Source: an uncultured bacterium (GTDB lineage Bacteria > Verrucomicrobiota > Kiritimatiellia > RFP12 > UBA1067). Taken from it: a stretch of 55,998 bases of DNA. Both the position numbers and the translations under genes were made by a program. This document shows, one piece after another, positions 451 to 17,150 of this stretch (its first letter is position 1; every line of letters starts with the position of its first letter). The notes under the pieces are model-generated. The model saw nothing but the letters and a program-made list of their open reading frames with translations, searched no databases and was not told the DNA's origin. Location: positions 1 to 55,998 of the forward strand of contig CACYNF010000004.1 in assembly GCA_902775595.1 (NCBI GenBank). The letters run 5' to 3'.

Positions 451-1212
451 TTACGGATTGAACGTGAACGTCTCCGAGTCGGTCGCAAGGCAGTTGTCAG
501 GGATGACAATCCAAAAAGCCTTTCCAGCAGGAATGTCATCAGCAGCCTGTGCATATTCACCATCGCGCCACCAACCAGCGGCAAGTCCCTCGTCAGTATC
601 CTCGCAGTAGTAGAACTTCTTCTGATATGCTGCTGCAATATCACTCGTCTTAATCCAAATCTGCGGGCAGTCATCGAGGTCGCAGTCGGCGTAGTCAAGG
701 AGCGGCACACCGTCCGAGACCTGAATCTTGGACATATTGAGAGCGTTCGGGAACGGATTGGCTGCGATGATATATCCACCATTGCAAACGGGAACGGTAA
801 TCCCGCTCGTCATGTCGGCGACCTGCCCGTTGAACGAGATGGAGTAGGACGCCTTGTCGTAGATCGATGCATCGTCAGGAATGACAAGCCAGAAGCCGCG
901 GCCAAGGGCAACCATATCTGCGACGGTCGGCGCATATTCGCCATCCCGCCACCAGCCAGCATCAAGGCCCTCATCTGTATCCTCGCAATAATAGAACTTC
1001 TTTTGGTACGCTGCCGCCGTGTCACTGGTCTTAAGCCAGATCTGCGGGCAGTCATCAAGGTCGCAGTCAGCGTAGTCGAGGAGCGGAAGATCGGTGGTGA
1101 TCTGAGTGCCGAGGTTCGCGGCGTCGGCATCAGAACCGCATTCGTTGAACTGAATCGCCAACATGTTGTACGATCCAGGGACAACATCCCTCTGGACATA
1201 TCCGACAGCGTT
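451..1212 (-). CDS. Cassette A start-less variable 'NAVGY' protein fragment (253 aa, internally duplicated acidic domain)
   Basis: Frame reads NAVGYVQRDVVPGSYNMLAIQF...TFTFNP*; two near-identical halves (PLLDYADCDLDDCPQIWxKTSD...GWWRDGEYA); upstream in-frame sequence has no signal peptide and overlaps the recombination arm. Confidence 0.8.
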   Translation of the reverse strand, partial: NAVGYVQRDVVPGSYNMLAIQFNECGSDADAANLGTQITTDLPLLDYADCDLDDCPQIWLKTSDTAAAYQKKFYYCEDTDEGLDAGWWRDGEYAPTVADMVALGRGFWLVIPDDASIYDKASYSISFNGQVADMTSGITVPVCNGGYIIAANPFPNALNMSKIQVSDGVPLLDYADCDLDDCPQIWIKTSDIAAAYQKKFYYCEDTDEGLAAGWWRDGEYAQAADDIPAGKAFWIVIPDNCLATDSETFTFNP

Positions 1213-1318
1213 CGCAAATGGGCGGGAGACTGAATTATAGGCATCTTGTGATTTGAAGGGGGGCAGAGATGGTGCAGTAAAGTGCAGTGCGAGAAGGGGA
1301 GAATCGGGTAGATTATCG
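1198..1318 (-). repeat. Putative recombination site A: core CGAACGCTGTCGGATAT (1198-1214) plus arm with GGCAG/GTGCAG/GTGCAG direct repeats
   Basis: 13-bp core identical to 9148-9160, 9449-9461 and 17032-17044; arm closely matches the arm at 17045-17150 (ggcagagatggtgcagtaaagtRcagtgcRRgaaggggagaatMgggtaga). Confidence 0.85.
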
Positions 1319-1366
1319 GTGATGAGAAGGGGAGTATTTTCGCTTGGCAGTGGTGGCGACCTTAGA

Positions 1367-1468
1367 GTTCCCGCGTGGCTGAGGGGGCTCGACAAGTAGC
1401 ACGCCCAGGGGCCGATCACGCAAGATGAACACGTCGTCCAGCGGGCGAGGATTCTTGCCGAGCTGTAG
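1367..1468 (+). pseudogene. Remnant of the 3' end of a tyrosine recombinase paralog (SHOCT-like tail)
   Basis: 1379-1468 translates LRGLDK*HAQGPITQDEHVVQRARILAEL*, aligning without gaps to the integrase C-terminus LRQLEKLKRKSLISEEEYASTRSRILAEI* (12/29 identical); internal stop; same position and orientation relative to the arm as the intact gene. Confidence 0.7.
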
Positions 1469-1520
1469 GGGCTCATGGACATTTCGCCATTTGGTGCTAT
1501 TATTTGGTTGGCGGCTAAAA

Positions 1521-1805
1521 CATACCGCTTTATACTGCACAATCCGCTCGTTATACTGGTTTATACTGGCCTAAAATAGCGGTAAGAGAGTTCCGCGTAG
1601 ACCCATTAGCGGCAAGGTTTTCGGAGCCCCCAAAAACCGCGCAAGCCCCTTAAACCAATCGACAACTTTTCGATACTCCGCGACAATCCGCGCAATCCTC
1701 GCAAAACCCCAGTAAACACTATGCTTTCCTAAGCCTTCGCCGCGCTCCCCGCCCCACCCCGCGCAAGCCCCCGCAACCCGCCGCAAAACTGGTTTATAGA
1801 GATGT
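1521..1805 (+). repeat. 285-bp direct repeat R285, copy 1 (fused to cassette B at TGT|CGGCTAC)
   Basis: Same length and highly similar to 20550-20834; TATACTG x3 (1531, 1552, 1562), CCGCGCAAGCCCC x2; ends ctggtttatagagatgt. Confidence 0.9.
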
Positions 1806-2142
1806 CGGCTACCAGACCAAGGATGTGAGGCAGTACCTCTCGGTTCAGCTCGCGACATTTGAGGATGTCGCTGCGGAAGGCATGAACATCCAGAGCATCA
1901 AGCCCGTTGCACCAGACGGAGAGGCAATTTCATCTGGCGACTTTGAAATCCAGATTTATGATGCTCTCGGTTCCATTGTAACCTCCTATGCCTATGTTCT
2001 CGGCGAAGATATCGGCGATGAATATGTTGATGGTTGGTACGAGGAAGACTGGGAGACGCTTGTAAATAAAACATTCAATCCCGGCGAGGGCTTCAACGTT
2101 TCTGCTGCTAAGGTAGGATATCTGAAGTTTCCCGCTCTCTAA
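1801..2142 (+). CDS. Cassette B start-less variable 'VGY' protein fragment (113 aa, single domain)
   Basis: Frame reads DVGYQTKDVRQYLSVQLATF...GWYEEDW...FNPGEGF...LKFPAL*; same acidic/aromatic family pattern as the A, C, D and E fragments; no signal peptide. Confidence 0.75.
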   Translation, partial: DVGYQTKDVRQYLSVQLATFEDVAAEGMNIQSIKPVAPDGEAISSGDFEIQIYDALGSIVTSYAYVLGEDIGDEYVDGWYEEDWETLVNKTFNPGEGFNVSAAKVGYLKFPAL

Positions 2143-2224
2143 TGATTTGTGCGCGGCATAGGGTCGCGCGCGAAAACAACCAATGCCCTCTGTCAAAGGA
2201 GGGCAAACAAAAGGAAAACAAAAA

Positions 2225-2776
2225 ATGAAGAAACTAATGATTGCACTTGCAGCGATCGCAATGGCGATTGGTGTGCAGGCTGCGTCTGTTAAGTGGACAG
2301 CAACAAATGTTTATGCTGGCAATTCAACAGACAAGGTCGGGGGCGTAGCCTACTTCCTGACCACCGACATGGCATCAACCGACTCGTGGGCGAACCTGAA
2401 AACCGCCTCGGAATTTCAGACTGCACTCGCTGGCAAGTATAGTTGGACACCAAGCACAGCAGGCACATACAGCATCACCTCTGCTGGAGCTGTGCCCAAT
2501 GCGACTTTGGGGCTCGAAGATGGTACTGCGTATACAGCGTATCTACTCATCTTTGACACTGCGACAATAACGGATGAGTCGAAGTACTATATTACCAATA
2601 CAAAAGAGTTTTCGACATACAACGGTACTTCAACCGCTTCTATTGCGTTTGGAACTCAGGCAAATGCTTCTCAGGCTGCTGGTGGCTGGGCGACGGTTGC
2701 CGTTCCTGAACCGACGAGCGGCTTGCTGATGCTCCTCGGCATGGCGGGGCTTGCGCTCCGTCGTCGTCGCGCCTAA
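2225..2776 (+). CDS. PEP-CTERM surface protein (cassette B)
   Basis: MKKLMIALAAIAMAIGVQA signal; C-terminal VPEPTSGLLMLLGMAGLALRRRRA; AAGGA RBS. Confidence 0.95.
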   Translation: MKKLMIALAAIAMAIGVQAASVKWTATNVYAGNSTDKVGGVAYFLTTDMASTDSWANLKTASEFQTALAGKYSWTPSTAGTYSITSAGAVPNATLGLEDGTAYTAYLLIFDTATITDESKYYITNTKEFSTYNGTSTASIAFGTQANASQAAGGWATVAVPEPTSGLLMLLGMAGLALRRRRA

Positions 2777-2798
2777 TTCGTTAGTCGCATAGCAATGG

Positions 2799-2830
2799 AA
2801 AGCCCGTCCGTGATTGCACGGGCGGGCTTT
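2799..2830 (+). terminator. Stem-loop after PEP-CTERM gene (terminator/attenuator-like)
   Basis: aaagcccgtccgtg-attg-cacgggcgggcttt; identical copy at 10801-10832. Confidence 0.75.
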
Positions 2831-2865
2831 CTGTTTGACTATGCTAAAGTGGAATGAGATGTTCT

Positions 2866-3702
2866 ATGATCGCGCCTCCGAAAACTGACTCAAATTGCAC
2901 CGACTGCAAGTGCCAGCAGCCCACCATTGGCTTGCTTTGGAAAGGTCTGGCGGTTGTCGTAGTTATTGCGATTGCCAGCGTCGTGTTCTTCTTCTCCCGC
3001 AAAGACAACAACGTTCAACCTGAAATCTCTGACGATGCGCGAACTACCGCCCTCAAGGAAGTGCAGCCAACAAAGTCAAGGGCAAGTTCCCAGGACACTG
3101 CCCTTCCTCGCTCCACTACGAAGGATATTGCTACGGTCGAGAACGAGCAACAGAAAGCCGCGCCGAAGTCAAACTCCCCCTGGGCGAACAAGCCGCCGAG
3201 GGTGATAAAGCATCGAGAATCAGACAAGAAACCTCGCCGATTCGTGTATGATTCGGAAGAGTTGATAGCCAATTTGCTGGAGATTGAACCCGGAACTCTT
3301 ATGTTTGGCGAGTTGCCATACGGCAAGCGGTTCAACGAGGACTTCAAGCAGGCCATAATGCAGAAGGTCAAAATCAACCCCGAAGACGACGAATATACAA
3401 AGGAACTCAAGCGGCAGGTGCAAGCGGTCAAGGATGACTTCAAGCAGATTCTTATAGACGGAGGCGACGTCGGGGAGGAAATGCGCAAGGCCCGCAACGA
3501 GCTGAAGGAACTTGGAATGTTCAAGGAGTCGCTTAGACGCGAGCTGTTTGAGCTCCGCAAGAGCGGAGAGTATTCAAGCGACGACATGAAGGACTTTATA
3601 ACTGCGGCGAACAAGATGCTCGAGGCCAAGGGGCTCCAGCCGCTGAAGGTTCCGCGCGTATTTTTGAGAAATCTCGAACTTAAGGAAGGTAAAACCAAAT
3701 GA
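2866..3702 (+). CDS. Cassette B gene 3: single-TM membrane-anchored hypothetical protein
   Basis: N-terminal TM, low-complexity linker, conserved helical domain (EPG...F...ELK...ANKMLEAKG); paralog of 6850-7818, 10854-11696, 14800-15705. Confidence 0.85.
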   Translation: MIAPPKTDSNCTDCKCQQPTIGLLWKGLAVVVVIAIASVVFFFSRKDNNVQPEISDDARTTALKEVQPTKSRASSQDTALPRSTTKDIATVENEQQKAAPKSNSPWANKPPRVIKHRESDKKPRRFVYDSEELIANLLEIEPGTLMFGELPYGKRFNEDFKQAIMQKVKINPEDDEYTKELKRQVQAVKDDFKQILIDGGDVGEEMRKARNELKELGMFKESLRRELFELRKSGEYSSDDMKDFITAANKMLEAKGLQPLKVPRVFLRNLELKEGKTK

Positions 3703-4520
3703 AGAGCATATTTACAGTATTCTGCCTTGCGGCCTGCGCGTCGTATGTCGCAATAGCAGCCCCAGCCAAGCTTACCCCAGAGCAGATAAAGGCAAAGCAG
3801 GAGGCCTTTGCGAAGCTTTCCCCCGAAGAGCGTCAGAAGGCGATAGAGGAAGGCCGGGCGCACTTCCTCGAACGCACGGGCGGCTACGTCAGGAACACGG
3901 CGGGGCAGAAAGGCCGTGTGCTGATCGCTAACGCTCAGAAGTCGGTCCCGCTTGACGGGGTCCGCAAGTCCGTGACGAAGCTTGCCGAGCAGATGAAGAT
4001 TGCCATAGACATCGAGGCCATCGACGGTGCCGACACGGGAAATGCGGCGGCTTTCCTGAAGGACAGGAAGGCAAACGCGGTGGTCTACATTGTCGAAACT
4101 GGAAAGTCGCCACTGCTCGTCTCCCCAGACGAGTGCTGGGCAACCGTAAGCGTGTCAGCCCTTGGCGACGCCAACGCTACGTCCCGCCTCGAAAAGGAGA
4201 CCATGCGGGCGCTGACGTTCCTCTGCGGAGGCACGGCGAGCGGATACCCCAATCCGATGACATATCCCGTCACGGACGTCCGCCAGCTTGACCTGATCGA
4301 CGCACCCGACCTGCCAATCGACGTGATCCAGCGCATGCTTATGTACCTCGAAAAGCTCGGGGTGACGCCGTACAAGCAGGCCACGTACCGCACCGCCTGC
4401 AAGCAGGGCTGGGCACCAGCGCCGACGAACGACGTCCAGAAGGCAATATGGAACAAGGTCCACGAGATGCCCTCCGAGCCGATCAAGATCAAGCCCGAGA
4501 CCAGGAAGGTCAGCGAATAA
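3699..4520 (+). CDS. Cassette B gene 4: secreted hypothetical protein with conserved GWAPAPTNDVQKAIW tail
   Basis: Signal peptide; RTGG, L.SP...WA.V.V, KE..RA...L.G motifs shared with 6083-6853, 11717-12499, 14031-14798. Confidence 0.85.
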   Translation: MKSIFTVFCLAACASYVAIAAPAKLTPEQIKAKQEAFAKLSPEERQKAIEEGRAHFLERTGGYVRNTAGQKGRVLIANAQKSVPLDGVRKSVTKLAEQMKIAIDIEAIDGADTGNAAAFLKDRKANAVVYIVETGKSPLLVSPDECWATVSVSALGDANATSRLEKETMRALTFLCGGTASGYPNPMTYPVTDVRQLDLIDAPDLPIDVIQRMLMYLEKLGVTPYKQATYRTACKQGWAPAPTNDVQKAIWNKVHEMPSEPIKIKPETRKVSE

Positions 4521-4547
4521 CGGCTGTCGATCCGTCTTTGCCGAGCT

Positions 4548-5324
4548 GTGAAATACACATACGCATACAAGACGAGCGACGGTGTCCGGCACGAGGATTC
4601 GCTCGATGCCAACAGCCGTGACGAGGTCTTTGAGGTTCTTCGCGGGCACGGCATTAGGCCCATCAAAGTTGTCGCGGCGGACGGCTCTAAGGCGAACGGA
4701 GAGGTTCGCGGTCTCCGCAAACGCGCCGTGTTCGCCCTTGTTGCCCTCGCTGCAGCAGTCGCTGGTGTCGTCGCCTACTTCGGCGGGGAGCGCTCAGGCG
4801 CGGCCACAGCCGCCAATTACGCGATGTCCGCGCCTCGGCACCAGATTTACGGCGATCCGGCAACCGTCGAGGGGTTGGAGCGAGGCGACTTCGCGGCTCA
4901 TTTGCCGCGAGTCGGCGATCAGATGCTTGCGGTTTTTGCGCAACCTGGCAAGTTGATGTGCGCCAAGGGTGCGAATCCGAGGCGCATTGACGAAAAGAGC
5001 TACGGGGCTTTCGAAGCATACGCTAAGAACGACCTTGCCGTGGAGAATGACATAGCCATCAATTCAGCAGACTCACGTGAAATCACGGAACTGAAGCAGA
5101 TCGTGAACGGGATGCGCGAGGAAATGCGCGAGTACCTCGCCAATGGCAATGGAACGCCGCGTTCCTTCTGGCGACGGCTCAACGAGCGAACCGAGCAGGA
5201 GATTCAGATCTACGAGCGCACCCGCCGCGAACTGGAGAAAGAGACTTCCGAAGAGGTCTGGGAGCAGAAGAACGATGCCTTGCGGCGGTTGGGTCTGCGC
5301 ACAATTCCCAACCCCGGCGAGTAG
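4548..5324 (+). CDS. Cassette B gene 5: GspF/PilC-N-terminal-like domain + TM + helical domain
   Basis: MKYTYAYKTSDGVRHEDSLDANSRDEVFEVLRGHGIRPIKV resembles the PilC/GspF N-terminus; near-identical to 12496-13272. Confidence 0.8.
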   Translation: MKYTYAYKTSDGVRHEDSLDANSRDEVFEVLRGHGIRPIKVVAADGSKANGEVRGLRKRAVFALVALAAAVAGVVAYFGGERSGAATAANYAMSAPRHQIYGDPATVEGLERGDFAAHLPRVGDQMLAVFAQPGKLMCAKGANPRRIDEKSYGAFEAYAKNDLAVENDIAINSADSREITELKQIVNGMREEMREYLANGNGTPRSFWRRLNERTEQEIQIYERTRRELEKETSEEVWEQKNDALRRLGLRTIPNPGE

Positions 5325-5327
5325 TCG

Positions 5328-6086
5328 CTACTCCAGCGATTCAAGGGTTAGCGGGCGGATGCCGAGGTTGCGAAGTTTGTCGTTCTGCGACTCCCAGTAG
5401 TTGATGAGAGCATTTCCGCTCATTGTCTCTTTGGCTCGCTCCAGATTTGCCTTTGTGCGCTCGTATGCGGCGATCTCGGCGTCTTGCCGCTCTGTCAGCC
5501 GCCTGCCATAACTAACGACACTACCACCAGCGGCGACGTAGGCACGCGCCTCATTCTTCATGCCCTCGACCATCGCCTTGATCTGCCGCGCCTCAAGTCC
5601 ATCTTCGGTTGCGACGGGAACACTGCGGCCAAGCGAGGACTCGATCTCCTCGACGGTCGTGTTTCTCTGCGCCGCCTTAACACCCGGCACTGCGAAGGAG
5701 GCGAGGAAGCGGTCTCCTTCGTGTTCAAACACATCGCTCCAGCCGGTCAGAATGCCTTTCTCGATAATGGCCGCGTCGCCTATTGGATAGCGGCGCGTCT
5801 GGTCTGACTGAAATGCATCCACCACCAGCGTCGGGCGGACAATGCGCAGAAAGGCCGCTGTCGCGCCCACTGCGGCAACGAACGCCACGAGGATGGACAC
5901 AGCTACAACTCGCCGACGGACACCCACGGGCGCGCCGTTGGCCTTGCTGCCGTCTGCGGCGACTACCTTGATTGGGCGGATGCCCCGCTCGCGCAACACT
6001 GCAAATGCGGCGTCGCGGCTCGCGGCTTCTATCGACGCCTCGTGCCGTGTTCCGTCCGACGTCTTGTAGGCGTAGGTGTATTTCAT
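5328..6086 (-). CDS. Cassette C gene 5: GspF/PilC-N-like + TM protein
   Basis: MKYTYAYKTSDGTRHEASIEAASRD...; near-identical to 13276-14034. Confidence 0.8.
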   Translation of the reverse strand: MKYTYAYKTSDGTRHEASIEAASRDAAFAVLRERGIRPIKVVAADGSKANGAPVGVRRRVVAVSILVAFVAAVGATAAFLRIVRPTLVVDAFQSDQTRRYPIGDAAIIEKGILTGWSDVFEHEGDRFLASFAVPGVKAAQRNTTVEEIESSLGRSVPVATEDGLEARQIKAMVEGMKNEARAYVAAGGSVVSYGRRLTERQDAEIAAYERTKANLERAKETMSGNALINYWESQNDKLRNLGIRPLTLESLE

Positions 6087-6853
6087 CGACCCTTCTTCGG
6101 ATCGAATTCAATCTTCATGGGTGTAGCGGGCACGGCGTGAACCTTGTCCCAGATCGCCTTCTGCACATCGTTCGTCGGCGCGGGTGCCCAGCCCTCCTGG
6201 CAGGCCTTCTTGTAGGTGGTCATTATGGCGGGACGCACATCTAGAGTTTCCATATACCCCTTGAACCTCTGTATCACGTCCACTGGCAAGCTCAAATCAG
6301 GATTCTTATCAAGGTCTGCGTGGTTGACGATGCCGCGAGTTAAGGCGCGTGGATACTGCGAGTTCGCCGCTCCGCAGAGATATGCAAACCCCCGAGACAA
6401 CTCCTTCTTGACGCGCGCCTCAAAGAATGCCGGACGCTCTTCCTTGGCTATTGGCGCAACGTTCACGAACGCCCAGCGGTTCTCGGGAGCCACAAGTATT
6501 GCAGGTAATGAGGCATCGTCAATGATGAAGAGCGTTGCATTGCCCTCAATCTTGGGATTCTTAAGGTCAAACGATGTTCCGCTCTTAAGCGAAATCTTGA
6601 ACCGTGTCTCTTTCGCGAAGTACGCGACAGATTCCTCGATCCATGCCTTTGGAATGCGGGTCTGGCAATCTGCGTACACAATTTCACCCTGTTGTGTGCC
6701 GGGCTTTACAATGCGCCCGCCTGTACGCTTGTCAACCTCTGCCTGATGCTCCGCTCTGCGAATAGCGAGTTCTTCAGGAGTGACGACTTCTTTAGCGTAT
6801 GACGTCGCTGCAAATACCACGACAGCGGACGCAAGAATTAGCATGTTCTTCAT
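6083..6853 (-). CDS. Cassette C gene 4: secreted hypothetical protein
   Basis: Signal peptide; GWAPAPTNDVQKAIWDKVHAVP tail; 4-bp overlaps with both neighbours. Confidence 0.85.
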   Translation of the reverse strand: MKNMLILASAVVVFAATSYAKEVVTPEELAIRRAEHQAEVDKRTGGRIVKPGTQQGEIVYADCQTRIPKAWIEESVAYFAKETRFKISLKSGTSFDLKNPKIEGNATLFIIDDASLPAILVAPENRWAFVNVAPIAKEERPAFFEARVKKELSRGFAYLCGAANSQYPRALTRGIVNHADLDKNPDLSLPVDVIQRFKGYMETLDVRPAIMTTYKKACQEGWAPAPTNDVQKAIWDKVHAVPATPMKIEFDPKKGR

Positions 6854-7818
6854 TGTTTGTTCTCCAGTTCTGTCATTAGTTTTCTACGGGTTATCGGGCC
6901 AAACTTCATTGGCGCTATTCCTTTGGATTCAAGCATCTTGTTGCAGGCTTCAAGCAGGGTTTCTACATCCTTTTCGGTAGTGCCTTCTGCACGGCGGAGT
7001 TCATTGAACTGCTTTCGCAGTTCCATTTTGTATCGCGCCAGGTCTTGAAGTTCCTGCCGTGTGTCGAGCATAATCTGCTCAATGTCCTCGCCCCTGTCGA
7101 GAGCGTCCTTTAGTTGTAGCTTCGCGGCAATGACGTCGCGCTTGAGCTGCGCCTGTTCAGGTGTGTCGTCCTCGGTCACGATTATTGGCGTTTTCAGAGA
7201 TTCGAGAAACTTCTCCTTGAACCGCCCAGTATAGCGTGCCGGTCCGACAAGAGCATCGCCAGGCTTTATAGAGAGATAGCAAGCTATCTCGTTGTCGCAG
7301 GCATGGTCAAAGATGTGGTAAGCACCTTTAGCTCGCGAGGCGACCGAGTTGGTAATCACGCCTTGACGTCTGTGCAGACGCCCTGAAGGTAGAAGGACAT
7401 ATCCATTGACAACCTCGCCGACCTTTGTAGGCCGGGCATTTGGATCGGGTTTCGGCGGCTCAACTTTTTCTTCGACAGGCTTGGGCCGTGAAATCGCAGG
7501 TCTAACCTCAACGATTTTTGAAGGCTTTTTAGGAGCGCTAACTGTTTTAGGATTCGGACTCTCCGTTCTTGTGGCGAGCAAGTACCACGCAGTAAAAGCA
7601 AGGCCGACAACAGCCGCCCCAGCCACAATGCCTCTAACAATCTTGGGTGACTGGCAATGTGCTCTTGCTCGAGGACGCTCGCGTGCACCTTCTTCAATTT
7701 TGATGGCTGATATGCCTTTGTCCGCAAGAACCTTGAATAGTGCTCCGCGGCTTTCGGCCTCGAACACATCGACTGTCGGACTGCCGTTCTTGGCTCTGTA
7801 TGTTATGCTCCAGTTCAT
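6850..7818 (-). CDS. Cassette C gene 3: membrane-anchored protein, here with an extra PilC/GspF-N-like N-terminus
   Basis: MNWSITYRAKNGSPTVDVFEAESRGALFKVLADKGISAIKI; TM; TPIIVTEDDTPEQAQLKR domain shared with 10854-11696. Confidence 0.85.
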   Translation of the reverse strand: MNWSITYRAKNGSPTVDVFEAESRGALFKVLADKGISAIKIEEGARERPRARAHCQSPKIVRGIVAGAAVVGLAFTAWYLLATRTESPNPKTVSAPKKPSKIVEVRPAISRPKPVEEKVEPPKPDPNARPTKVGEVVNGYVLLPSGRLHRRQGVITNSVASRAKGAYHIFDHACDNEIACYLSIKPGDALVGPARYTGRFKEKFLESLKTPIIVTEDDTPEQAQLKRDVIAAKLQLKDALDRGEDIEQIMLDTRQELQDLARYKMELRKQFNELRRAEGTTEKDVETLLEACNKMLESKGIAPMKFGPITRRKLMTELENKQ

Positions 7819-7835
7819 CGTGCCTCTAAAGATTG

Positions 7836-8501: not shown

Positions 8502-9158
8502 TTAGTCGTTCAACTCAACGCCCGGAAATGTAATGGTGTTTCCAGCCTCGTCACTCTGGACCCAGAACGCCTGACCAGGAGCAAAGGTAACGTTTTCAGC
8601 GGGTTTTCCAGTGCTCTCATCAAGCCAGCACATCTTGCCCTTGACCATCGTCCAGTCATAGGTGTCAACCGTGTATCCTAGTTCATCAAGCGTGTTAAGA
8701 AAGACAAGGTCAACGGCTTCCTCGTTGCAAACTATGTCTTGAATATCAACGGCCACAGGGAAGCAGTTTCCGCACATCACAGAACCGCCTTCATCATCAA
8801 GATCAACTGTGACATCCTCGGTTCCAACTTGGCCAGAAGATTGGAACACGTTATTGGGCTCGTCGCTCTGCACCCAAAAAGCGGTACCCGGCTTAAACGT
8901 AATGTTCTCGGCGGGTTTGCCAGTGCTTTCGTCGAGCCAGCACATCTTGCCCTTGACAACGGTCCAGTCATATGTATCAACAGTATAGCCAAGGTTGTCC
9001 AGTGTGTTCAAGAACACAAGGTCAACCGCGTCCTCATTGCACTGGATGGTCTGAAGGTCAACAGCGCCGCCCTCAGTGCCGATTCCAAGGAACTGCGGCG
9101 TAACAATCACCGAGCCTCCATTGTTGTCGAGCTCGCTCTGCGCATACCCGACAGCGTT
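8502..9158 (-). CDS. Cassette C start-less variable 'NAVGY' protein fragment (218 aa, duplicated domain)
   Basis: NAVGYAQSELDNNGGSVIVTPQF...; in-frame TAG just upstream of the core; halves share AVDLVFLNTLDxLGYTVDTYDWTxVKGKMCWLDESTGKPAEN. Confidence 0.85.
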   Translation of the reverse strand, partial: NAVGYAQSELDNNGGSVIVTPQFLGIGTEGGAVDLQTIQCNEDAVDLVFLNTLDNLGYTVDTYDWTVVKGKMCWLDESTGKPAENITFKPGTAFWVQSDEPNNVFQSSGQVGTEDVTVDLDDEGGSVMCGNCFPVAVDIQDIVCNEEAVDLVFLNTLDELGYTVDTYDWTMVKGKMCWLDESTGKPAENVTFAPGQAFWVQSDEAGNTITFPGVELND

Positions 9159-9230
9159 CGTTAGCGTTGATATCTATGAAATACAAGCAGGTGGCAATTT
9201 AACGGTACAGTATCGGTGCAGAAAAGTGCA
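9144..9230 (-). repeat. Putative recombination site C (core 9144-9160 + GTACAG/GTGCAG/GTGCAT arm)
   Basis: atacccgacagcgttcg; tgaaatacaagca shared with site E; GGTGCAG begins 55 bp from the core. Confidence 0.85.
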
Positions 9231-9376
9231 TCGTTTTCGAGCAGAAAACGACTCCATACAATCCCTTGGACTCGGTATGATTCAACGCCCGAGTGTGCCA
9301 TTAAAGCAGTGTATCTTCACTTGGGTAAATGACCTTCAAAACTGCCTGGAACGGGCTCAGCAAGGGGCGTTTTTCC

Positions 9377-9465
9377 CTTCACTTTTCTGCACCTTAACTG
9401 CACTGTTCCATTAGGCTGGCACTTGCATTTAAAGGCTCACGCCATCTGCGAACGCTGTCGGGTAT
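9377..9465 (+). repeat. Putative recombination site D (core 9449-9465 + arm upstream), back-to-back with site C
   Basis: cgaacgctgtcgggtat; reverse strand reads gtgcagttaaggtgcagaaaagtg, with GGTGCAG 56 bp from the core. Confidence 0.85.
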
Positions 9466-10152
9466 GATACGCTCGCTCTGCGCGGCGGAAATCAGGCAAA
9501 GGGTGTTGGAGCGTCGTTCATTCCAGTCAGCGAGGGCGGCCTCAAACTCGGCGACATCAAGATTATTGGCTATGACACAACCGAGGGCTACGGAGACTTC
9601 GAGGTTCAGGCAAAGCAGCTTGATGGTTATGGACGTGGTGGTACAACTTACTTCTGGTGCGACTTTGAAGAAGAAGGCGATGTGTACTACGGCTGGTACG
9701 ACGAGGACATGAACGAGTACAACGATCTTGCCCTTGTTCCCGGTGAGGGCCTTTGGGTTTACTCCCCCAGCACAGATTTCCAGATTCAGAGCGCAGGAGC
9801 TGTTCCCAGCACGAGCATTGCCGTGGCGCTGCGCGGTGGCAATCAAGCCAAACTGGTTGTCAATCCCATGCCGACAACCATAACTTTGGGTGACGTCAAG
9901 GTTGATGGCTATGCCAAAGCCGACGGGTACGCCGACTTTGAGATTCAGGCGAAGCAGCTTGATGGTTATGGCCGTGGTGGTACAACATACTTCTGGAGTG
10001 ACTTCGAGGAGGAGGGTGATGTGTATTATGGCTGGTACGATGAGGACATGAATGATTATAATGATGTAGAGGTTGCCGCTGGCGATAGCCTGTGGATATA
10101 TTCTCCGAGCACTGACTACTCGGTTGTATTCCCAACGCCTCTCGCTGACTAA
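9451..10152 (+). CDS. Cassette D start-less variable 'NAVGY' protein fragment (233 aa, duplicated domain)
   Basis: SANAVGYDTLALRGGNQAK...; in-frame TAA at 9430-9432 with no ATG before the core; halves share DFExQAKQLDGYGRGGTTYFWxDFEEEGDVYYGWYDEDMN. Confidence 0.85.
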   Translation, partial: NAVGYDTLALRGGNQAKGVGASFIPVSEGGLKLGDIKIIGYDTTEGYGDFEVQAKQLDGYGRGGTTYFWCDFEEEGDVYYGWYDEDMNEYNDLALVPGEGLWVYSPSTDFQIQSAGAVPSTSIAVALRGGNQAKLVVNPMPTTITLGDVKVDGYAKADGYADFEIQAKQLDGYGRGGTTYFWSDFEEEGDVYYGWYDEDMNDYNDVEVAAGDSLWIYSPSTDYSVVFPTPLAD

Positions 10153-10217
10153 CTAAATTTGCTTCGTACACGGCATAGGGTCGTGTTGCAAAGTAAAACA
10201 AAAAAAAGGAAACAAAA

Positions 10218-10778
10218 ATGAAGAAAATAATGGTTGCAGCTGTTGCCGTCGCTTTTGCAGCGGTTGCTCATGCTGCTGCGTTCAACTGGTCGTCTTCCGG
10301 CACAAACGCCGCAAAGACATTCTACGGTCCTGATGGTGCGACTGCGCTCGCATCCGGCACGGTCGTGTACCTTCTTGACTCTGGCGTTTCCGGTAACAGC
10401 CAGGCCGACCTCGTGGCAGGTATCCGTGGCGGAAAGTCGATTACTGACTTCACGACGATCACATCCACAACGCTCGACTCCAACAGTCGTCTGACGGCCA
10501 AGGGGTTTGAGTATGGCACAGCAGGCAATGACTATAATTTCTATATGGCCATTGTCTCGGGTGATAATGTGTTCGTCTCGGCAGACAAGGGCGCGAGTGC
10601 GCAGGCCTCTGATACGGTTACGGTTGCATTCTCCGGCATAAAGACCGCCACTCAGACGCTTAAGGCTGATGGTGCGTATGCTGGTGGTGGTTGGTATGCT
10701 GCCGTTCCGGAGCCGACCTCTGGTCTTCTGATGCTTCTCGGCATCGCTGGACTTGCGCTCCGCCGCCGTCGCGCCTAA
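10218..10778 (+). CDS. PEP-CTERM surface protein (cassette D)
   Basis: MKKIMVAAVAVAFAAVAHA signal; VPEPTSGLLMLLGIAGLALRRRRA. Confidence 0.95.
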   Translation: MKKIMVAAVAVAFAAVAHAAAFNWSSSGTNAAKTFYGPDGATALASGTVVYLLDSGVSGNSQADLVAGIRGGKSITDFTTITSTTLDSNSRLTAKGFEYGTAGNDYNFYMAIVSGDNVFVSADKGASAQASDTVTVAFSGIKTATQTLKADGAYAGGGWYAAVPEPTSGLLMLLGIAGLALRRRRA

Positions 10779-10800
10779 TTCCGCAAGGGATCAACGCAGT

Positions 10801-10832
10801 AAAGCCCGTCCGTGATTGCACGGGCGGGCTTT
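10801..10832 (+). terminator. Stem-loop after PEP-CTERM gene (cassette D)
   Basis: Identical to 2799-2830. Confidence 0.75.
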
Positions 10833-10853
10833 ATCTCATGAGAGGAAGTCTGA

Positions 10854-11696: not shown

Positions 11697-11716
11697 TTTC
11701 AGAAAGGATGGAACAC

Positions 11717-12499: not shown

Positions 12500-13272
12500 A
12501 ATATACCTTCGCATACAAGACCTCGGACGGCGTCAGGCATGAGGATTCACTTGATGCCGAGAGCCGCGACGAGGTCTTTGAGGTTCTTCGCGGGCGCGGC
12601 ATTAGGCCCATCAAAGTCGTAGCGGCGGACGGGTCGAAGGCGAATGGAGAGGTTCACGGCCTTCGCAAACGCGCCGTGTTCGCCCTTGTAGCCTTCGCTG
12701 CGGTTGTTGCGGGCGTTGTTGCCTACCTCGGCGGGGAGCGCACAGGGGCCGCCACAGCCGCCAATTCTGCGGCAAGTGCGCCGCGCCACCAGATATACGG
12801 TGACCCGGCGACGATGGAGGGGCTGGAACGCGGCGACTTCGCGGCGCATCTGCCGCGCACAGGCGACCAGATGCTCGCCGTCTTTGCACAGCCGGGCAAG
12901 CTTATGTGCGCCAAGGGTGCGAATCCGAGGCGCATCGACGAAAAGAGCTACGCGGCTTTCGAGGCATACACCAAGAATGAACTTGCTGCGGAGAACGACA
13001 TTGCCATCGAGCAATCCGATCTACGCGAAATCACGGAGCTGAAGCAGATCGTAAACGGGATGCGCGAGGAGATGCGAGAATACCTTGCAAATGGCAACGG
13101 CACGCCTCGCTCCTTCTGGCGGCGGCTCAACGAGCGCACCGCGCAGGAGATGCAGATATACGAGCGCACCCGACGCGAACTGGAGAAAGAGACATCTGAA
13201 GAAGTCTGGGAGCAGAAGAACGATGCCTTGCGGCGGTTGGGGCTGCGAACGATTCCCAATCCTGGAGAGTAG
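12496..13272 (+). CDS. Cassette D gene 5: GspF/PilC-N-like + TM protein
   Basis: GTG start overlapping upstream TGA; near-identical to 4548-5324. Confidence 0.8.
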   Translation: MKYTFAYKTSDGVRHEDSLDAESRDEVFEVLRGRGIRPIKVVAADGSKANGEVHGLRKRAVFALVAFAAVVAGVVAYLGGERTGAATAANSAASAPRHQIYGDPATMEGLERGDFAAHLPRTGDQMLAVFAQPGKLMCAKGANPRRIDEKSYAAFEAYTKNELAAENDIAIEQSDLREITELKQIVNGMREEMREYLANGNGTPRSFWRRLNERTAQEMQIYERTRRELEKETSEEVWEQKNDALRRLGLRTIPNPGE

Positions 13273-13275
13273 TAG

Positions 13276-14034
13276 CTACTCAAGGGATTCGAGGGTGAGC
13301 GGGCGGATGCCGAGGTTGCGGAGCTTATCGTTCTGCGACTCCCAGTAGTTGATGAGGGCGTTGCCGCTCATGGTCTCCTTTGCCCGTTCCAAATCTGCCT
13401 TTGTGCGCTCGTATGCGGCGATCTCGGCGTCTTGGCGTTCCGTCAGCCTCCTGCCATATTCGACGATGGTTCCCCCTGCTGCAATGTAGGCTCGCGCCTC
13501 GGACTTCATGCCATCGACCATCGCCTTAATCTGCCGCGCCTCAAGTCCATCGTCGGATGTGGGATTAATCTTTCGCGCAAGTGCGGACTCGATCTCCTCG
13601 ACCGTCGTGTTGCGTTGCCCTGCCTTTACACCAGGCACGGCGAAGGAGGCGAGGAAGCGCTCTCCTTCATGTTCAAACACATCGCTCCAGCCGGTAAGGA
13701 TGCCTTTCTCGACGATTGCAGCATCGCCTATTGGATAGCGGCGCGTCTGGTCTGACTGAAATGCATCCACCACCGGCGTCGGGCGGACAACGCGCAGAAA
13801 GGCCGCTGTCGCGCCCACAGCGGCGACGACCGCGACGAGGATGAACACAGCCACCACTCGCCGACGGACACCCACAGGCGCGCCGTTAGCTTTGCTGCCG
13901 TCTGCGGCGACTACCTTTATCGGGCGGATGCCCCGCTCGCGCAACACTGCAAATGCGGTATCGCGGCTCGCGGCTTCTATCGACGCCTCGTGCCGTGTTC
14001 CGTCCGACGTCTTGTAGGCGTAGGTGTATTTCAT
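13276..14034 (-). CDS. Cassette E gene 5: GspF/PilC-N-like + TM protein
   Basis: Near-identical to 5328-6086; ATG at 14034 overlaps the upstream stop. Confidence 0.8.
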   Translation of the reverse strand: MKYTYAYKTSDGTRHEASIEAASRDTAFAVLRERGIRPIKVVAADGSKANGAPVGVRRRVVAVFILVAVVAAVGATAAFLRVVRPTPVVDAFQSDQTRRYPIGDAAIVEKGILTGWSDVFEHEGERFLASFAVPGVKAGQRNTTVEEIESALARKINPTSDDGLEARQIKAMVDGMKSEARAYIAAGGTIVEYGRRLTERQDAEIAAYERTKADLERAKETMSGNALINYWESQNDKLRNLGIRPLTLESLE

Positions 14035-14798
14035 CGACCCTTCTTCGGATCGAACTCGATTTTCATGGGGGTAGCGGGCACGGCGTGAACCTTGTCCCAG
14101 ATCGCCTTTTGGTATTCGTTTGCAGGAGGCGGTGCCCATCCCTCGGCGCAGGCTCTCCTGTATGATGTGAGCTTCGCTTGTGCGATGCCCAGCTTCGCGG
14201 CGCTCTGCGACATCTCCCTGAATGGTTCAGGGCAGGGCTGCTCCATTTTGAGATTGTCGATGTCCTTTATTCCTGCGCAGGGTTTCATTACACAGGCTGG
14301 CATCTGGTTGTTTCCCCCACCCAGCATGTAGACGAGCGCCCTCCACACCTCCTTCGTTACCCGCTTGGCGAACTTCTCGGCATCAGGCGCATCCGCCTTT
14401 AGCGGGGCGACGTTCACGCTTGCCCACCCCTGCTCCGGCGCAGCGAGGATCGTCATCTTCGATGTTGCGTCGTCTTTTACCACAATGTACGCGCCAGTAT
14501 TGGCATCGGGGAGGTATTCCCGCGTCGGCTCTCCCTTGATGACCGTGGCTGAGAACCTCGGTCCTGTCGAGACGGCCTTCGCCAATGCATTGAAAATTTC
14601 GTCTGGCACTCCGCTCCGGGCATCGACAATCTTGATGCCCCTCCCCGTGGCGGGGGCTACGACGAAGCCGCCTGTCTTGCGCATGACCTCCTCGCGCATC
14701 TCGGCGGGGGTCTTTCCGTGTTTCCCGTCCGTTTTGCCTTCAGCGGCAATTGCGGCAATGCACAGTGTGGCCGCGATGCAAGCTATTATGTTCTTCAT
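14031..14798 (-). CDS. Cassette E gene 4: secreted hypothetical protein
   Basis: Signal peptide; KTGG, APEQGWASVNV, GWAPPPANEYQKAIWDKVHAVP. Confidence 0.85.
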   Translation of the reverse strand: MKNIIACIAATLCIAAIAAEGKTDGKHGKTPAEMREEVMRKTGGFVVAPATGRGIKIVDARSGVPDEIFNALAKAVSTGPRFSATVIKGEPTREYLPDANTGAYIVVKDDATSKMTILAAPEQGWASVNVAPLKADAPDAEKFAKRVTKEVWRALVYMLGGGNNQMPACVMKPCAGIKDIDNLKMEQPCPEPFREMSQSAAKLGIAQAKLTSYRRACAEGWAPPPANEYQKAIWDKVHAVPATPMKIEFDPKKGR

Positions 14799-14799
14799 G

Positions 14800-15705
14800 T
14801 CATTGTCTCCCTTGTTGGTTCCTTTTGCTCTTTATCGTTTGGAGCTTCTCCCTGATGTGCTGGCGAAGCTCGCGGTTCTCCGTTCCGGGCATCCTGATTG
14901 GCTCCGAGCCAAGTTCAATAAGTTTTTCGTTCGCCTTGTCGACGTATTCGCGGGCAAGCTCGACGTCGCCGCTTTTGTAGATGTCCAGCGCCTCATTCTG
15001 TGCCTCTATGCGGAGCGCGGCGTTCTCCCTGAGGAGCGACTGGTGCTGTGTCAGTATCTCGTAGACGGACAGCCCCTCGCTCTCCTTGATGGCCAGCACC
15101 TCCGCCCGCAGTTTAATCACGGCTTCCTTGGCGGCCCGCACTTCGGCGCTGTCGCCGTCCAGTATCTCGATCGGAGTCTCCAGGCTCTTCATGAAGTCGT
15201 GGTCGACGCTCTTCGTTATGGGCAGAGGCGGCATGTCGCGACCGGGTGGAGTTGAGGCGATCATGCCGAGAATCTGGTCGGAGCCGTTCGTGAAGATCGA
15301 CCTCCGCCTTGCGAACTTCTCCTTCCACTTGTTCAACCGGGCCTCCTCCGCAGCGGCTTCGGCATTGGCCACCTCATTGGAACTTGCGTCGGCGGCGTGA
15401 ATCAAGCGCCGAGCGGCACCGCCGGAAGATGCAGCAGCAGACTTGGGGGCTATGTCCTTCACTCGTCGCGTCTTTGGAGTGCCGAGCCTCCTGGCCTCCG
15501 CCTCATCCTGTTGCGCATGGTTGCATGAAAACAGCCACCATGCGCCACATGCCACTGCGACAACGGCAAGCGCGGCGAATGTGCCGCGCAGCCAGCCGCA
15601 CCTGGCGGACGGGGCGGGGCGACTCGTCGCGCGGCTGTCCGCCGTGCGATTCCCGTAGCCTTTGCGCGGCACATTCGCCGCGCCGCCGCTGCCGTTCCAT
15701 GCCAT
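14800..15705 (-). CDS. Cassette E gene 3: membrane-anchored hypothetical protein
   Basis: TM (TFAALAVVAVACGAWWLF); FMKSLETPIEILDGD...ANEKL domain paralogous to the other gene-3 copies. Confidence 0.85.
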   Translation of the reverse strand: MAWNGSGGAANVPRKGYGNRTADSRATSRPAPSARCGWLRGTFAALAVVAVACGAWWLFSCNHAQQDEAEARRLGTPKTRRVKDIAPKSAAASSGGAARRLIHAADASSNEVANAEAAAEEARLNKWKEKFARRRSIFTNGSDQILGMIASTPPGRDMPPLPITKSVDHDFMKSLETPIEILDGDSAEVRAAKEAVIKLRAEVLAIKESEGLSVYEILTQHQSLLRENAALRIEAQNEALDIYKSGDVELAREYVDKANEKLIELGSEPIRMPGTENRELRQHIREKLQTIKSKRNQQGRQ

Positions 15706-15724
15706 TTGTCGCTCCTCTGCATTG

Positions 15725-15754
15725 AAAAGCCCGCCCGATTTCTCGGACGGGCTT
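15725..15754 (-). terminator. Stem-loop after PEP-CTERM gene (cassette E)
   Basis: aagcccgcccga-tttc-tcggacgggctt with T-run on the minus strand. Confidence 0.7.
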
Positions 15755-15791
15755 CTCTGAATGCCGCGTTCGTCGCGGCCTTATTCCAGGA

Positions 15792-16307
15792 TTACGCCCT
15801 CTTGCGCTTCAGCGCGAGACCCGCGATGCCGAGAAGCATCAGGAGCCCGCTCGTCGGCTCAGGAACGGCAGCAAGCGTGTGCCAGTTCCCAGCTGTCGCC
15901 ATCTCACTTTTCGAGGCGAAGGTCTTTGCTGCGGGAGTAGCAGTATCTCCTACAGCAGTAGAAACTGTAGCCGCGGAGGAGACGTAATACTTGTCATCAC
16001 TGACAACTACAGCATACCACGAATAGTCTGTGCCTTCCGTTACCCACGAATCTTTTACCGTGATGTTTCCTGTCGAAGCCGTCATTGATCCGACTGATAG
16101 CGTACCTTTGGACTTGGACGCACTCTGAATGTCAGCCAAGGACATCTGCTTCGAGCTGTCATAGTCGGCAGCAAGAATCATATACACGTCAGCTCCATCG
16201 TAGGGCGAACCTGCGGCTTTAGTCGCCGTAAACGCCCAGCGGAATTGAGCAGCTTGAGAAGCGATGGCCGCCAATGCGACACACGCGACAATTACTAGTT
16301 TCTTCAT
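15792..16307 (-). CDS. PEP-CTERM surface protein (cassette E)
   Basis: MKKLVIVACVALAAIASQA signal; VPEPTSGLLMLLGIAGLALKRKRA. Confidence 0.95.
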   Translation of the reverse strand: MKKLVIVACVALAAIASQAAQFRWAFTATKAAGSPYDGADVYMILAADYDSSKQMSLADIQSASKSKGTLSVGSMTASTGNITVKDSWVTEGTDYSWYAVVVSDDKYYVSSAATVSTAVGDTATPAAKTFASKSEMATAGNWHTLAAVPEPTSGLLMLLGIAGLALKRKRA

Positions 16308-16358
16308 TTTCATTTTCCTTTGTTTTTCGCGCACGACCCTGTGCCGTACACAAAATTG

Positions 16359-17042
16359 TTACTTCGTGAATGTGATTGTCACATCCGTTCCAGCCTTGAA
16401 CCAGAAACCTGTCCCAACGGGAATTGTCGCTCCCTCGTCAGGACCACCCGCATCAAAATCAAACCAGAAGGAATCACCTTCAAAGTTGATGTAAAAGAAG
16501 TCAGAGTAGCCATCTGCCTTTGGAACGAGAATATGCGGAGCAGTTTCAACGAACGCAAAATCTTCATCAAAATCGACGCCGACTATACCCGAATATGTCA
16601 CACCAGAGACAGCGCAAGCGATGGGATATGGATTTGCAATCATGCTCCACTCGTCAGCTGTTGTTGAAACTGGTACCGAAGAATCGCTGACAACCTGGCC
16701 AGCGAAAGTAACGCTGCAATCTTCGCCTGACTGCTTGAACCAGATGCCCGTACCCGCAACAATGGGGGTTCCCTCGTCAGGGCCACCAGCATCAAAATCA
16801 AACCAGAATGTCTCTCCTTCAAAATTGATGTAAAAGTAGTCGGAGTATCCAGTCGGACTCGGAACCATGATGTGCGGAGCTGTGTCGATGAAGAGGAAGT
16901 CCTCGTCAAAGTCGACAGCACTATACTCTCCTTTGACCAGATTCGACAGAAGCGCATCGTTCCCATCGACTCCCTCGAACTGCACAGCCGTCAAGAGCCA
17001 TGCATCCTTCTTCGCCGTCACTGACGTATACCCGACAGCGTT
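16359..17042 (-). CDS. Cassette E start-less variable 'NAVGY' protein fragment (227 aa, duplicated domain)
   Basis: NAVGYTSVTAKKDAWLLTAVQF...; no ATG or signal peptide before the upstream TGA; halves share VDFDEDFxFxxTAPHI...YINFEGxxFWFDFDAGGPDEG. Confidence 0.85.
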   Translation of the reverse strand, partial: NAVGYTSVTAKKDAWLLTAVQFEGVDGNDALLSNLVKGEYSAVDFDEDFLFIDTAPHIMVPSPTGYSDYFYINFEGETFWFDFDAGGPDEGTPIVAGTGIWFKQSGEDCSVTFAGQVVSDSSVPVSTTADEWSMIANPYPIACAVSGVTYSGIVGVDFDEDFAFVETAPHILVPKADGYSDFFYINFEGDSFWFDFDAGGPDEGATIPVGTGFWFKAGTDVTITFTK

Positions 17043-17150
17043 CGTAAATGGGTAGGAGGCTGAAATACAAGCACTTTGCGTTTGCGGGATGGCAGAGATG
17101 GTGCAGTAAAGTACAGTGCAGGAAGGGGAGAATAGGGTAGAATATCAGAA
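17028..17150 (-). repeat. Putative recombination site E (core 17028-17044 + arm), directly upstream of the recombinase
   Basis: atacccgacagcgttcg; GGTGCAG at 17100 (56 bp from core); arm closely matches site A. Confidence 0.85.

Follow-up and report, generated by a model that had tools for sequence, protein, structure and literature searches.

A probable silent-cassette store with one-sided arm-like repeats beside a tyrosine recombinase gene in a rumen Kiritimatiellae-type bacterium

This report deals with a locus on contig CACYNF010000004.1, a stretch of 55,998 nucleotides (nt) from an uncultured Kiritimatiellae-type rumen bacterium, in which the gene of an integrase-like tyrosine recombinase lies beside 5'-truncated cassettes that begin with one and the same short core. 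In our view, the region likely holds the silent cassettes of a site-specific cassette-exchange system, which this recombinase would serve and which would have arm sites on one side of each core only. The parts of this reading differ in firmness. That we are dealing with a cassette-exchange store, with the crossover inside the codons for N-A-V-G-Y (NAVGY), can be held with high confidence, whereas the identification of the repeats beside the cores as arm sites of this particular recombinase, judged from sequence patterns, is only somewhat likelier than its opposite. As to the type of system, the best reading is a multiple-inversion system of the vsa/shufflon type, by which the bacterium probably swaps the version of a secreted protein that it makes. 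Each cassette is then best read as the mature part of a secreted two-repeat protein that heads its own operon (a PEP-CTERM protein and three conserved genes). The window, i.e., the whole stretch that was analyzed, is the entire contig C4 of a 3.15-Mb assembly (203 contigs, 86% complete), and its start falls inside the module of cassette A.

The core is a 13-mer, CCGACAGCGTTCG, with four exact copies in the window, at 1202-1214 (plus strand), 9148-9160 (plus), 9449-9461 (minus), and 17032-17044 (plus), here called sites A, C, D, and E, respectively. A search allowing up to two mismatches returned these exact copies only, and by our own arithmetic an exact 13-mer is expected about 0.002 times by chance in 56 kb over both strands. 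The whole 3.15-Mb assembly holds no fifth exact copy, and its eight one-mismatch cores equal the yield of a reversed-pattern control (also eight), with none of the eight in a cassette-like context. Sites A, C, and E share one orientation, and D lies on the other strand. An earlier reading of this DNA, made from the sequence only, had proposed that the core doubles as the coding sequence for N-A-V-G, so that a crossover would keep the frame, and this proposal holds. Four exact copies of CGAACGCTGTCGG (N-A-V-G) begin four 5'-truncated two-repeat cassettes at 1212, 9158, 9451, and 17042; on the coding strand all cores read AAC GCT GTC GG. TAT (N-A-V-G-Y) and continue in the same frame into an open stretch of 218-253 amino acids (aa). 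The cores and cassettes are as follows (strands are those of the coding sense).

1198-1214, minus strand: core of site A; the exact 13-nt part is 1202-1214, and the extended 17 nt (..GGATAT) differs by one base from C, D, and E.
454-1212, minus strand: silent cassette A, 253 aa from NAVGY, with two tandem repeats of ~127 aa and no Pfam family.
9144-9160, minus strand: core of site C; the exact 13-nt part is 9148-9160.
8505-9158, minus strand: silent cassette C, 218 aa from NAVGY, with an in-frame stop 5 codons upstream.
9449-9465, plus strand: core of site D, the sole core in the opposite orientation.
9451-10149, plus strand: silent cassette D, 233 aa from NAVGY, with an in-frame stop 6 codons upstream.
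17028-17044, minus strand: core of site E; nucleotide homology to two related genomes starts exactly at 17028.
16362-17042, minus strand: silent cassette E, 227 aa from NAVGY.
1801-2139, plus strand: degenerate fifth cassette F, starting GAT GTC GGC TAC (DVGY), without arms or the left half of the core, and with a single repeat unit.

Cassettes A, C, D, and E each consist of two tandem repeats of ~104-127 aa, and their pairwise protein identity is below 25%. Pfam offers no family for any of the five cassettes, and the look-alikes in the ESM Atlas are unnamed clusters only. The cores, on the other hand, are identical over 13 nt at all four sites and over 17 nt at C, D, and E.

A simple explanation would do without recombination: the sites would be the starts of paralogous genes with a conserved promoter or 5' leader in common, and NAVGY would be no more than a conserved N-terminus. 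A conserved block does stand upstream of four paralogous operons, and docks A and E (described below) are plain duplicates. Upstream of the cores, however, neither a start codon nor a signal peptide is present at any of the four sites; at C and D, no start codon fits between NAVGY and the upstream stop. The spacer between C and D likewise holds no sigma-70-like promoter match facing the cassettes. In relatives, complete genes with a promoter and a signal peptide join exactly at the motif, without the repeats, and homology between genomes breaks at the core. We therefore regard this explanation as very improbable.

On the non-coding side of all four sites stand three repeats with a period of 10-11 nt; read on the coding strand, they are words of the CTGC[AC] type that lie, counted from the Val codon, at about -81, -70, and -60. 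We refer to these repeats, together with the spacer that separates them from the core, as the dock. It takes the place of a promoter and signal peptide; its three C(T/G)GCA repeats keep helical register, and its spacer measures ~55 nt. In the lines below, distances are counted from the core end.

1261-1287, minus strand: arm repeats of dock A, on the plus strand GGGCAG (1261-1266, +47), GTGCAG (1272-1277, +58), and GTGCAG (1282-1287, +68); CTGC[AC] on the coding strand.
9205-9231, minus strand: arm repeats of dock C, on the plus strand GTACAG (9205-9210, +45), GTGCAG (9216-9221, +56), and GTGCAT (9226-9231, +66).
9378-9403, plus strand: arm repeats of dock D, TTCAC (9378-9382, degenerate), CTGCAC (9387-9392), and CTGCAC (9398-9403), which on the reverse complement read, from the core outward, GTGCAG (+46), GTGCAG (+57), and GTGAA (+67).
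17091-17121, minus strand: arm repeats of dock E, on the plus strand GGCAG (17091-17095, +47), GTGCAG (17101-17106, +57), and GTACAG (17111-17116, +67), with an overlapping fourth GTGCAG.

Upon re-measurement, the start of the central GGTGCAG lies 57, 55, 56, and 56 nt from the core at A, C, D, and E, exactly the distances first reported for it. Dock E abuts the recombinase gene, whose start codon is 132 bp away. When three CTG[CT][AC] words with gaps of 5-6 nt are required (a strict triple), the window gives two hits and the whole genome gives the same number, both times A and E, as compared with a mean of 0.02 and a maximum of 1 in 200 Markov-1 resamples of the window. The box AAT(A/G)CAAG, which had been noted nearer to the core, is indeed found at all four sites. 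It is not conserved outside this genome, being specific to the lineage, and we reject it as a general element, such as a conserved site for a bending protein.

Orthologues of the recombinase (45-96% identity) occur in 14 of the 24 congeners sampled as well as in many metagenome-assembled genomes (MAGs) from the gut of ruminants and humans, most of which are labeled as Kiritimatiellae, Kiritimatiellia, or Verrucomicrobia. It is in such relatives that the constant 5' part (promoter, start codon, and signal peptide) can be seen, namely in G003, L065, L076, L081, L037, and L135, where the single expression site reads ...ESAN(V/I)VGY behind a promoter and a signal peptide. Within 200 nt upstream of the signal-peptide sites, none of the six inspected has tandem repeats. 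A candidate for a seventh, in L075, was dropped as it does not resemble a signal peptide. Contig C14 of congener G003 illustrates both kinds of site. Seven docked cassettes lie on one strand, with a different core (..GTT GTC GGC TAY CAG AAC AAG, i.e., VVGYQNK) and the same three repeats at -81/-80, -71/-70, and -60/-59. On the opposite strand lies the expression site, a complete gene of 274 aa in which MDYKKMIAALAVAASATGFAVESANV is joined to VGYQNK.., with a promoter (TTGACA-17-TACAAT) and without repeats.

An alignment was made of 12 silent sites (four of this genome, seven of congener G003, and one of G001). Its only conserved parts are CTgC..tT..CTGCac.t.c.CTGCaC, which are the three repeats, and TGTCGG.TA; the spacer of ~55 nt is conserved in length and not in sequence. 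For a broader view, we took a census of GTNGGNTAY motifs in the window and loci L029-L122, which covers 101 distinct contexts that are each followed by at least 150 open codons. In 41 of them, from 27 sources, at least two of the three repeat positions are filled (all three in 11), and a signal peptide is found in none of these 41. Five contexts do have a signal peptide, with no repeat position filled in four and one filled in the fifth. In another 17, a single position is filled and a signal peptide is lacking; among the 13 cassette-like ones inspected, several show a degenerate CGGCA at the same offsets. The 38 contexts without any filled position are, by sequence, mostly unrelated genes, and one of them (L071 +2385, VESANI before VGY) looks like an expression site that the signal-peptide pattern missed. 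The periodic repeats on the non-coding side are real: in many genomes in which cores and spacers have diverged, they stay locked in position to the core.

Two further comparisons connect the silent and the expressed state. On metagenome contig L135, a homologue of cassette C (69% identity over 217 aligned aa) is fused to MKKLIALAAVATCGAAFAVESANI followed by VGY, so that this cassette type is seen in both states: expressed on L135, and docked on contig L136 and, behind a stop, in the window. Dock E and the recombinase gene, in turn, have nucleotide homology to L043 (88.9%) and L046 (84.8%) with its start at 17028, where the extended core begins, and the cassettes to the left of that base are unrelated between this genome and L043/L046. 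A different target is met in L102, where the same repeats stand at the same distance before another core (ATGT(CG)TACGAGAACGTTTCA) in the leader of PEP-CTERM genes, the sites at 9951 (minus) and 13106 (plus) forming an inverted pair around a recombinase orthologue. Judged by their sequence, the L102 sites represent a putative second kind of target for this recombinase family.

Some sites of relatives depart from these patterns. Two docks of G003 (L036 ~16341 and L039 ~6986, both on the minus strand) have the full repeats and spacer, followed by the 3' end of an operon gene (..KFDPKKGR*) and no VGY core; they may be products of aberrant exchange. Contigs of related MAGs (G001 C27, G011 C167, and G012 C203) often end 170-330 bp beyond the recombinase start, at the adjacent dock, which would be the expected outcome of assembly heterogeneity at a recombination site.

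The recombinase itself has more parts than the core-binding and catalytic domains.

17177-18439, plus strand: tyrosine recombinase of 420 aa, with an N-terminal domain (~8-52), a core-binding domain (65-146), a catalytic domain (171-350), and a SHOCT-like C-terminal tail.

The catalytic domain matches Pfam PF00589 (Phage_integrase) over residues 171-350 with 90.6 bits (cut-off, 27.1; E 1.3e-25), and R203, H309, R312, H335, and Y344, which by their position we take to be the catalytic residues, are invariant in 10 orthologues. The matches of the core-binding domain (SAM-like in Pfam, residues 65-146) and of the tail (SHOCT-like) are weak. In front of these lies an additional domain with a predicted beta-beta-beta-alpha order (strands at 8-12, 18-24, and 27-32, and a helix at 38-52), modeled with a predicted local distance difference test score (pLDDT) of 82-88 over residues 11-50 and 76 on average. 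This is the best-conserved stretch of the protein, with 63-77% identity in the nine closer orthologues (one near-identical copy at 98% aside), compared with 58-67% over the whole protein in seven of these nine (one at 85% aside). Full-length lambda Int is among the best Foldseek matches of the whole model (353-414 aligned columns). When the N-terminal domain was searched alone with VIA-align, residues 14-62 of lambda Int (1z1b_A; Z 4.3), the lambda IntDBD-P'2 complex (2wcc; Z 4.0), and the arm-binding domain of HPI (3jtz; Z 4.0, root-mean-square deviation 2.0, 23% identity) came 17th, 28th, and 31st among 48,161 chains, all below the top unrelated chain at Z 5.3, and AP2 domains reached Z 3.9-4.6. 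A weak match to Pfam DUF6538, a family that presumably sits at the N-terminus of integrases, falls on this domain in 6 of 15 orthologues. Several orthologues (among L034, L016, L019, and L015) carry low-complexity insertions of 30-75 residues, which follow the catalytic beta-hairpin region ahead of the next helix and occur again in front of the SHOCT-like tail.

A number of observations count against the reading given at the outset, both for the arm function of the repeats and for a working system in this strain. To begin with the N-terminal domain, its matches to arm-binding folds (Z 4.0-4.3) lie inside the background of the search; since unrelated chains reach Z 5.3, an arm-binding fold is consistent with the data and not established by them. 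Foldseek gave no match of the domain to the PDB at E 0.001 or better, a profile search of the PDB gave chance-level matches only, NCBIfam has no arm-binding family for it, and Pfam, run on residues 1-164, returned the SAM-like domain only. Of the earlier suggestion of an arm-binding-like N-terminus, the extra domain is supported, and arm binding by it is a candidate role. The docks have their own irregularities. At C (ATGCA) and D (TTCAC), the outermost repeat has a degenerate sequence. Docks A and E, with 81% identity over 102 nt, are duplicates of one and the same dock, and the window thus holds three independent docks and not four. Finally, terminator-like hairpins stand just outside docks C (9230-9252, minus) and D (9362-9379, plus), each facing its cassette (two found versus 0.5 expected from shuffling), with T-runs that overlap the outer repeat. 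Because the hairpins run into the outer repeat there, part of the T-rich repeat context could serve insulation.

These points bear on an alternative in which cassette exchange is real and the repeats have another binder: a host architectural protein would hold them, or they would act as a silencer or insulator, and the N-terminal domain of the recombinase would have a different role, such as multimerization or regulation. No sequence family or clear fold match ties that domain to arm binding, the hairpins abut the repeats at C and D, and the missing promoter in the C-D spacer makes silencing a plausible need. Against a silencer, however, the repeats keep a fixed distance and helical phase in 41 sites whose spacers are not conserved, which fits an accessory site of recombination better. 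They also recur before a different core beside the recombinase orthologue of L102, no candidate gene for a DNA-binding protein is common to the inspected loci, and it is the N-terminal domain that orthologues conserve most. All in all, we judge another binder unlikely, and continue to favor the recombinase as the protein that holds the repeats.

The remaining counterevidence concerns the activity of the system in this strain. Neither the core pattern nor the contexts of one-mismatch hits revealed an expression site in the window or in the assembly, and a six-frame scan of the assembly for a signal peptide or (E/D)(S/T)xNx before VGY had no hits. With the cassettes and the operon proteins as queries, tblastn found no more cassettes, the sole match off this contig being a paralogue of the third operon gene with 28% identity (C85). 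In five genomes reached via loci with a close recombinase, AACGCTGTCGG was found at three docked sites only, its other hits lying in unrelated genes. As all four sites are silent and no expression site is at hand, inversions among the four alone would change nothing. This also qualifies the earlier picture of an integrase turned invertase with fixed silent docks: the repeats do belong to silent cassettes and are lacking at the expression sites of relatives, but the four sites do not suffice for a switch. The expression site may be unassembled, given that the assembly is 86% complete and that the contig starts inside module A. The locus has moreover decayed in part, as seen from the degenerate cassette F and a second recombinase gene that is mostly deleted.

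1215-1465, plus strand: dock A with the relic of a second recombinase gene; 1215-1317 shares 81% identity with dock E plus the promoter region of the recombinase gene, and 1367-1465 corresponds to the last 33 residues of a recombinase.

The remnant at 1367-1465 (33 codons, plus strand) contains an internal stop and matches the C-terminus of the L046 enzyme with 73% identity (E 2.7e-10). From the sequence, dock A and the remnant look like a duplicated dock-recombinase module that has lost most of its gene.

Evidence at the level of reads comes from Logan contigs of four runs that belong to a single study and may include the source of the assembly; such contigs drop rare variants. They confirm the reference arrangement across C-D and across E. 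No joints between cores are listed in the contigs of the four runs, in which rare variants would be dropped, and this adds to the counterevidence. Contig ends fall within 30 nt of a core in 7 of ~59 listed cases (1206; 9145; 9174 twice; 9463; 9486; 17058). Since the table is selected and the alternative sequences cannot be derived from it, these ends are no more than a hint. As an explanation for them, flipping of the 288-bp spacer between C and D was discarded, because it predicts a branch point at 9160/9161, whereas 9145 and 9174 were observed. In three of the four runs, the bins of cassette A (1-1268) have little or no cover, with cover from 1269 onward; as missing cover proves nothing, we do not use this as evidence.

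One could conclude that the locus is an inactive relic in this strain, with sites and docks left by an active ancestor, no switching, and operons that are silent or use other promoters. The assembly without an expression site, cassette F without half of its core and its dock, the recombinase remnant of 33 codons with a stop, and the contigs without joints between cores would all agree with this, as would the promoter-like matches at 1476-1557 (four in the searched region versus 0.4 expected), which could drive the F operon independently. Against this stand cores that are identical over 13 nt (17 nt in three) beside cassettes below 25% identity, a pattern that points to ongoing selection or homogenization, and a recombinase gene that is intact and keeps all its catalytic residues. 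The incompleteness of the assembly could account for the missing expression site, and contigs of relatives often end just beside the dock proximal to the recombinase. A relic seems improbable to us, and we retain the cassette-exchange store as our preferred reading.

How would such a store work? We infer repeat binding, spacer bending, partner choice, and activity in this strain, and the scheme is as follows. The N-terminal domain of the recombinase would bind the dock repeats while its core-binding and catalytic domains hold the core, the spacer being bent between them. The loaded dock would then capture the single repeat-free expression site (promoter, signal peptide, and ...ESAN(A/V/I)VGY), and a strand exchange located in the VGY codons would leave the DNA that separates the two sites inverted. 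As a consequence, the formerly silent cassette and its operon would gain a promoter and a signal peptide, and the formerly expressed cassette would inherit the dock. Because the repeats are found on one side of the core only, the products share the architecture of the substrates, which would make the reaction reversible without an excisionase-like or other directionality factor. The signal peptide ends in ..A-F-A, with V-E-S-A-N next, and hence the exchange point would lie ~6-8 residues into the mature protein, which would explain why the motif is conserved.

Several known systems share parts of this design. In the vsa locus of Mycoplasma pulmonis, one expression site provides a promoter and a 5' end encoding the signal peptide, whereas several silent genes have no such 5' end. 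Recombination takes place at a site within the coding sequence, so that an inversion attaches another 3' part in the same frame, and the locus also encodes the tyrosine recombinase, HvsR. The truncated silent genes, the in-frame coding site, the locus-encoded recombinase, and, as seen in relatives, the single 5'-complete expression site all recur in the present system. Unlike vsa, the present locus has three periodic accessory repeats per silent gene, ~55-80 nt away on the non-coding side and absent from the expression site, as well as an additional N-terminal domain in the recombinase, whole operons that travel with the cassettes, and a Kiritimatiellae-type host. The shufflon of R64/IncI plasmids, served by Rci, swaps 3' parts behind a constant 5' part through multiple inversions at asymmetric sites, with the recombinase gene beside the segments; its sites are short, consisting of a core and one conserved arm of ~12 bp, and are not known to have distant periodic repeats. 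The exchange of 3' parts, the asymmetry of the sites, and the adjacent recombinase gene are shared with the locus described here, which differs in its distant periodic repeats and in a constant part that comprises no more than the signal peptide and ~6 residues.

In the Rin shufflon of Bifidobacterium prophages, a tyrosine recombinase swaps variable C-terminal segments at short asymmetric crossover sites upstream of them (PMC6109161). The swap and the short asymmetric sites are alike here, and the extra N-terminal domain and the arm-like repeats are not. In the same source, Rin and the Xer-like invertases, and more generally the known tyrosine-recombinase invertases and shufflon enzymes, are described as "simple" and without an arm-binding domain, and how inversion is favored over deletion and how partners are chosen is posed as a problem (PMC6109161). 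A large survey ties the arm-binding domain to integrases of mobile elements (PMC8138268). The recombinase resembles the complex, arm-binding-domain recombinases of phages and integrative and conjugative elements (ICEs) in having a small N-terminal, a core-binding, and a catalytic domain (PMC8138268); unlike them, it resides in a chromosomal cassette store and appears to serve the variation of surface or secreted proteins. No phage or ICE genes were seen among the open reading frames of positions 1-20100, and the sites head paralogous chromosomal cassettes and not a mobile element.

Lambda offers the closest parallel to the sites themselves. Its P' arm has three adjacent arm sites that are bent back by IHF, and the loaded attP captures a naked attB (PMC4880445). 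Measured against that description, lambda Int and the recombinase both have a small N-terminal domain in front of the domains for core binding and catalysis, and the sites agree in having three neighboring direct repeats on a single arm, at a distance of several helical turns from the core, and an arm-free partner (attB in lambda); the dock, as a core with a P' arm, resembles attL. The differences are that the arms here are one-sided, that the products equal the substrates and no Xis-type factor would be needed, that the reaction would be an inversion within the chromosome and not integration or excision, that the core is a coding motif, and that no IHF-like site was identified. By analogy, then, the logic is that of vsa/HvsR and the R64 shufflon, with a site architecture resembling attL/attP versus attB of lambda. 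The full claim, that a domesticated lambda-like heterobivalent integrase drives a chromosomal antigen-type switch with arms only on the silent partners and on one core side, is one that we put forward tentatively, as somewhat less probable than an even chance.

The surroundings of the cassettes complete the picture of the locus. The window holds five modules, set in divergent and convergent pairs, in each of which the cassette is followed by a small PEP-CTERM gene (Pfam PF07589) and then by three conserved genes.

2222-2776, plus strand: small PEP-CTERM protein gene after the cassette, with paralogues at 1-393 (minus, cut by the contig end), 7889-8443 (minus), 10218-10778 (plus), and 15792-16310 (minus).

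Two of the three conserved operon proteins (4548-5324, 5328-6086, 6850-7818, and paralogues) begin with a motif (MKYTYAYKTSDG.., MNWSITYRAKNG..) that presumably resembles the N-terminal domain of GspF/PilC-type platform proteins; Pfam was blank for the one protein scanned. An exact hairpin-forming repeat of 32 nt (AAAGCCCGTCCGTGATTGCACGGGCGGGCTTT) lies 3' of two of the small PEP-CTERM genes, at 2799-2830 and 10801-10832. It is probably a shared terminator, and the Logan contigs of all four runs break at it. The promoter-like matches mentioned above were obtained in 1150-1850: three at 1476-1557 (plus strand), aimed at cassette F and its operon, and a fourth at 1659-1687. The best of the three is TGGACA-16-TATTAT with TG (10/12), and these matches might allow expression of the F operon without any switch.

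A direct repeat of 285 bp (94% identity) occurs at 1521-1805 and, 19 kb away, at 20550-20834, and nowhere else in the genome. It explains a joint 19000>1521 listed for the Logan contigs, which was accordingly ruled out as a rearrangement. The left end of the element has three TATACTG(C/G) words, and both copies end ..TTTATAGAGATGT; the first runs into cassette F (CGGCTAC..), and the second into ACATCT, giving the palindrome AGATGTACATCT. In the relative L046, the element directly follows the stop codon of the recombinase. Inverted TGCCTA/TAGGCA words are found at 20835-21300, upstream of a gene whose product starts MHIFDYENAPSTLL.. and may resemble Fic-family proteins. A homologue of this gene adjoins a dock in G003 (L036 15141-16190).

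Our literature searches yielded no publication that describes such a system in Kiritimatiellae or combines PEP-CTERM proteins with a shufflon. Together with its many relatives, the locus would represent a system, widespread among Kiritimatiellae of gut and rumen and so far undescribed, that varies secreted proteins together with their PEP-CTERM partner operons. Since the arm repeats are attached only to the silent cassettes, the question of partner choice becomes testable in a simple plasmid inversion assay, and one-sided arm control may be of interest for the design of recombinase-based shuffling tools. If the fuller reading is true, a loaded dock would correspond to attP/attL and the expression site to a naked attB, so that partners would be chosen as dock with expression site and not dock with dock. 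Cassette loss would be avoided, and every product would be a new substrate without any directionality factor. The arrangement would thus provide a built-in answer to how tyrosine-recombinase shufflons control which of their sites recombine.

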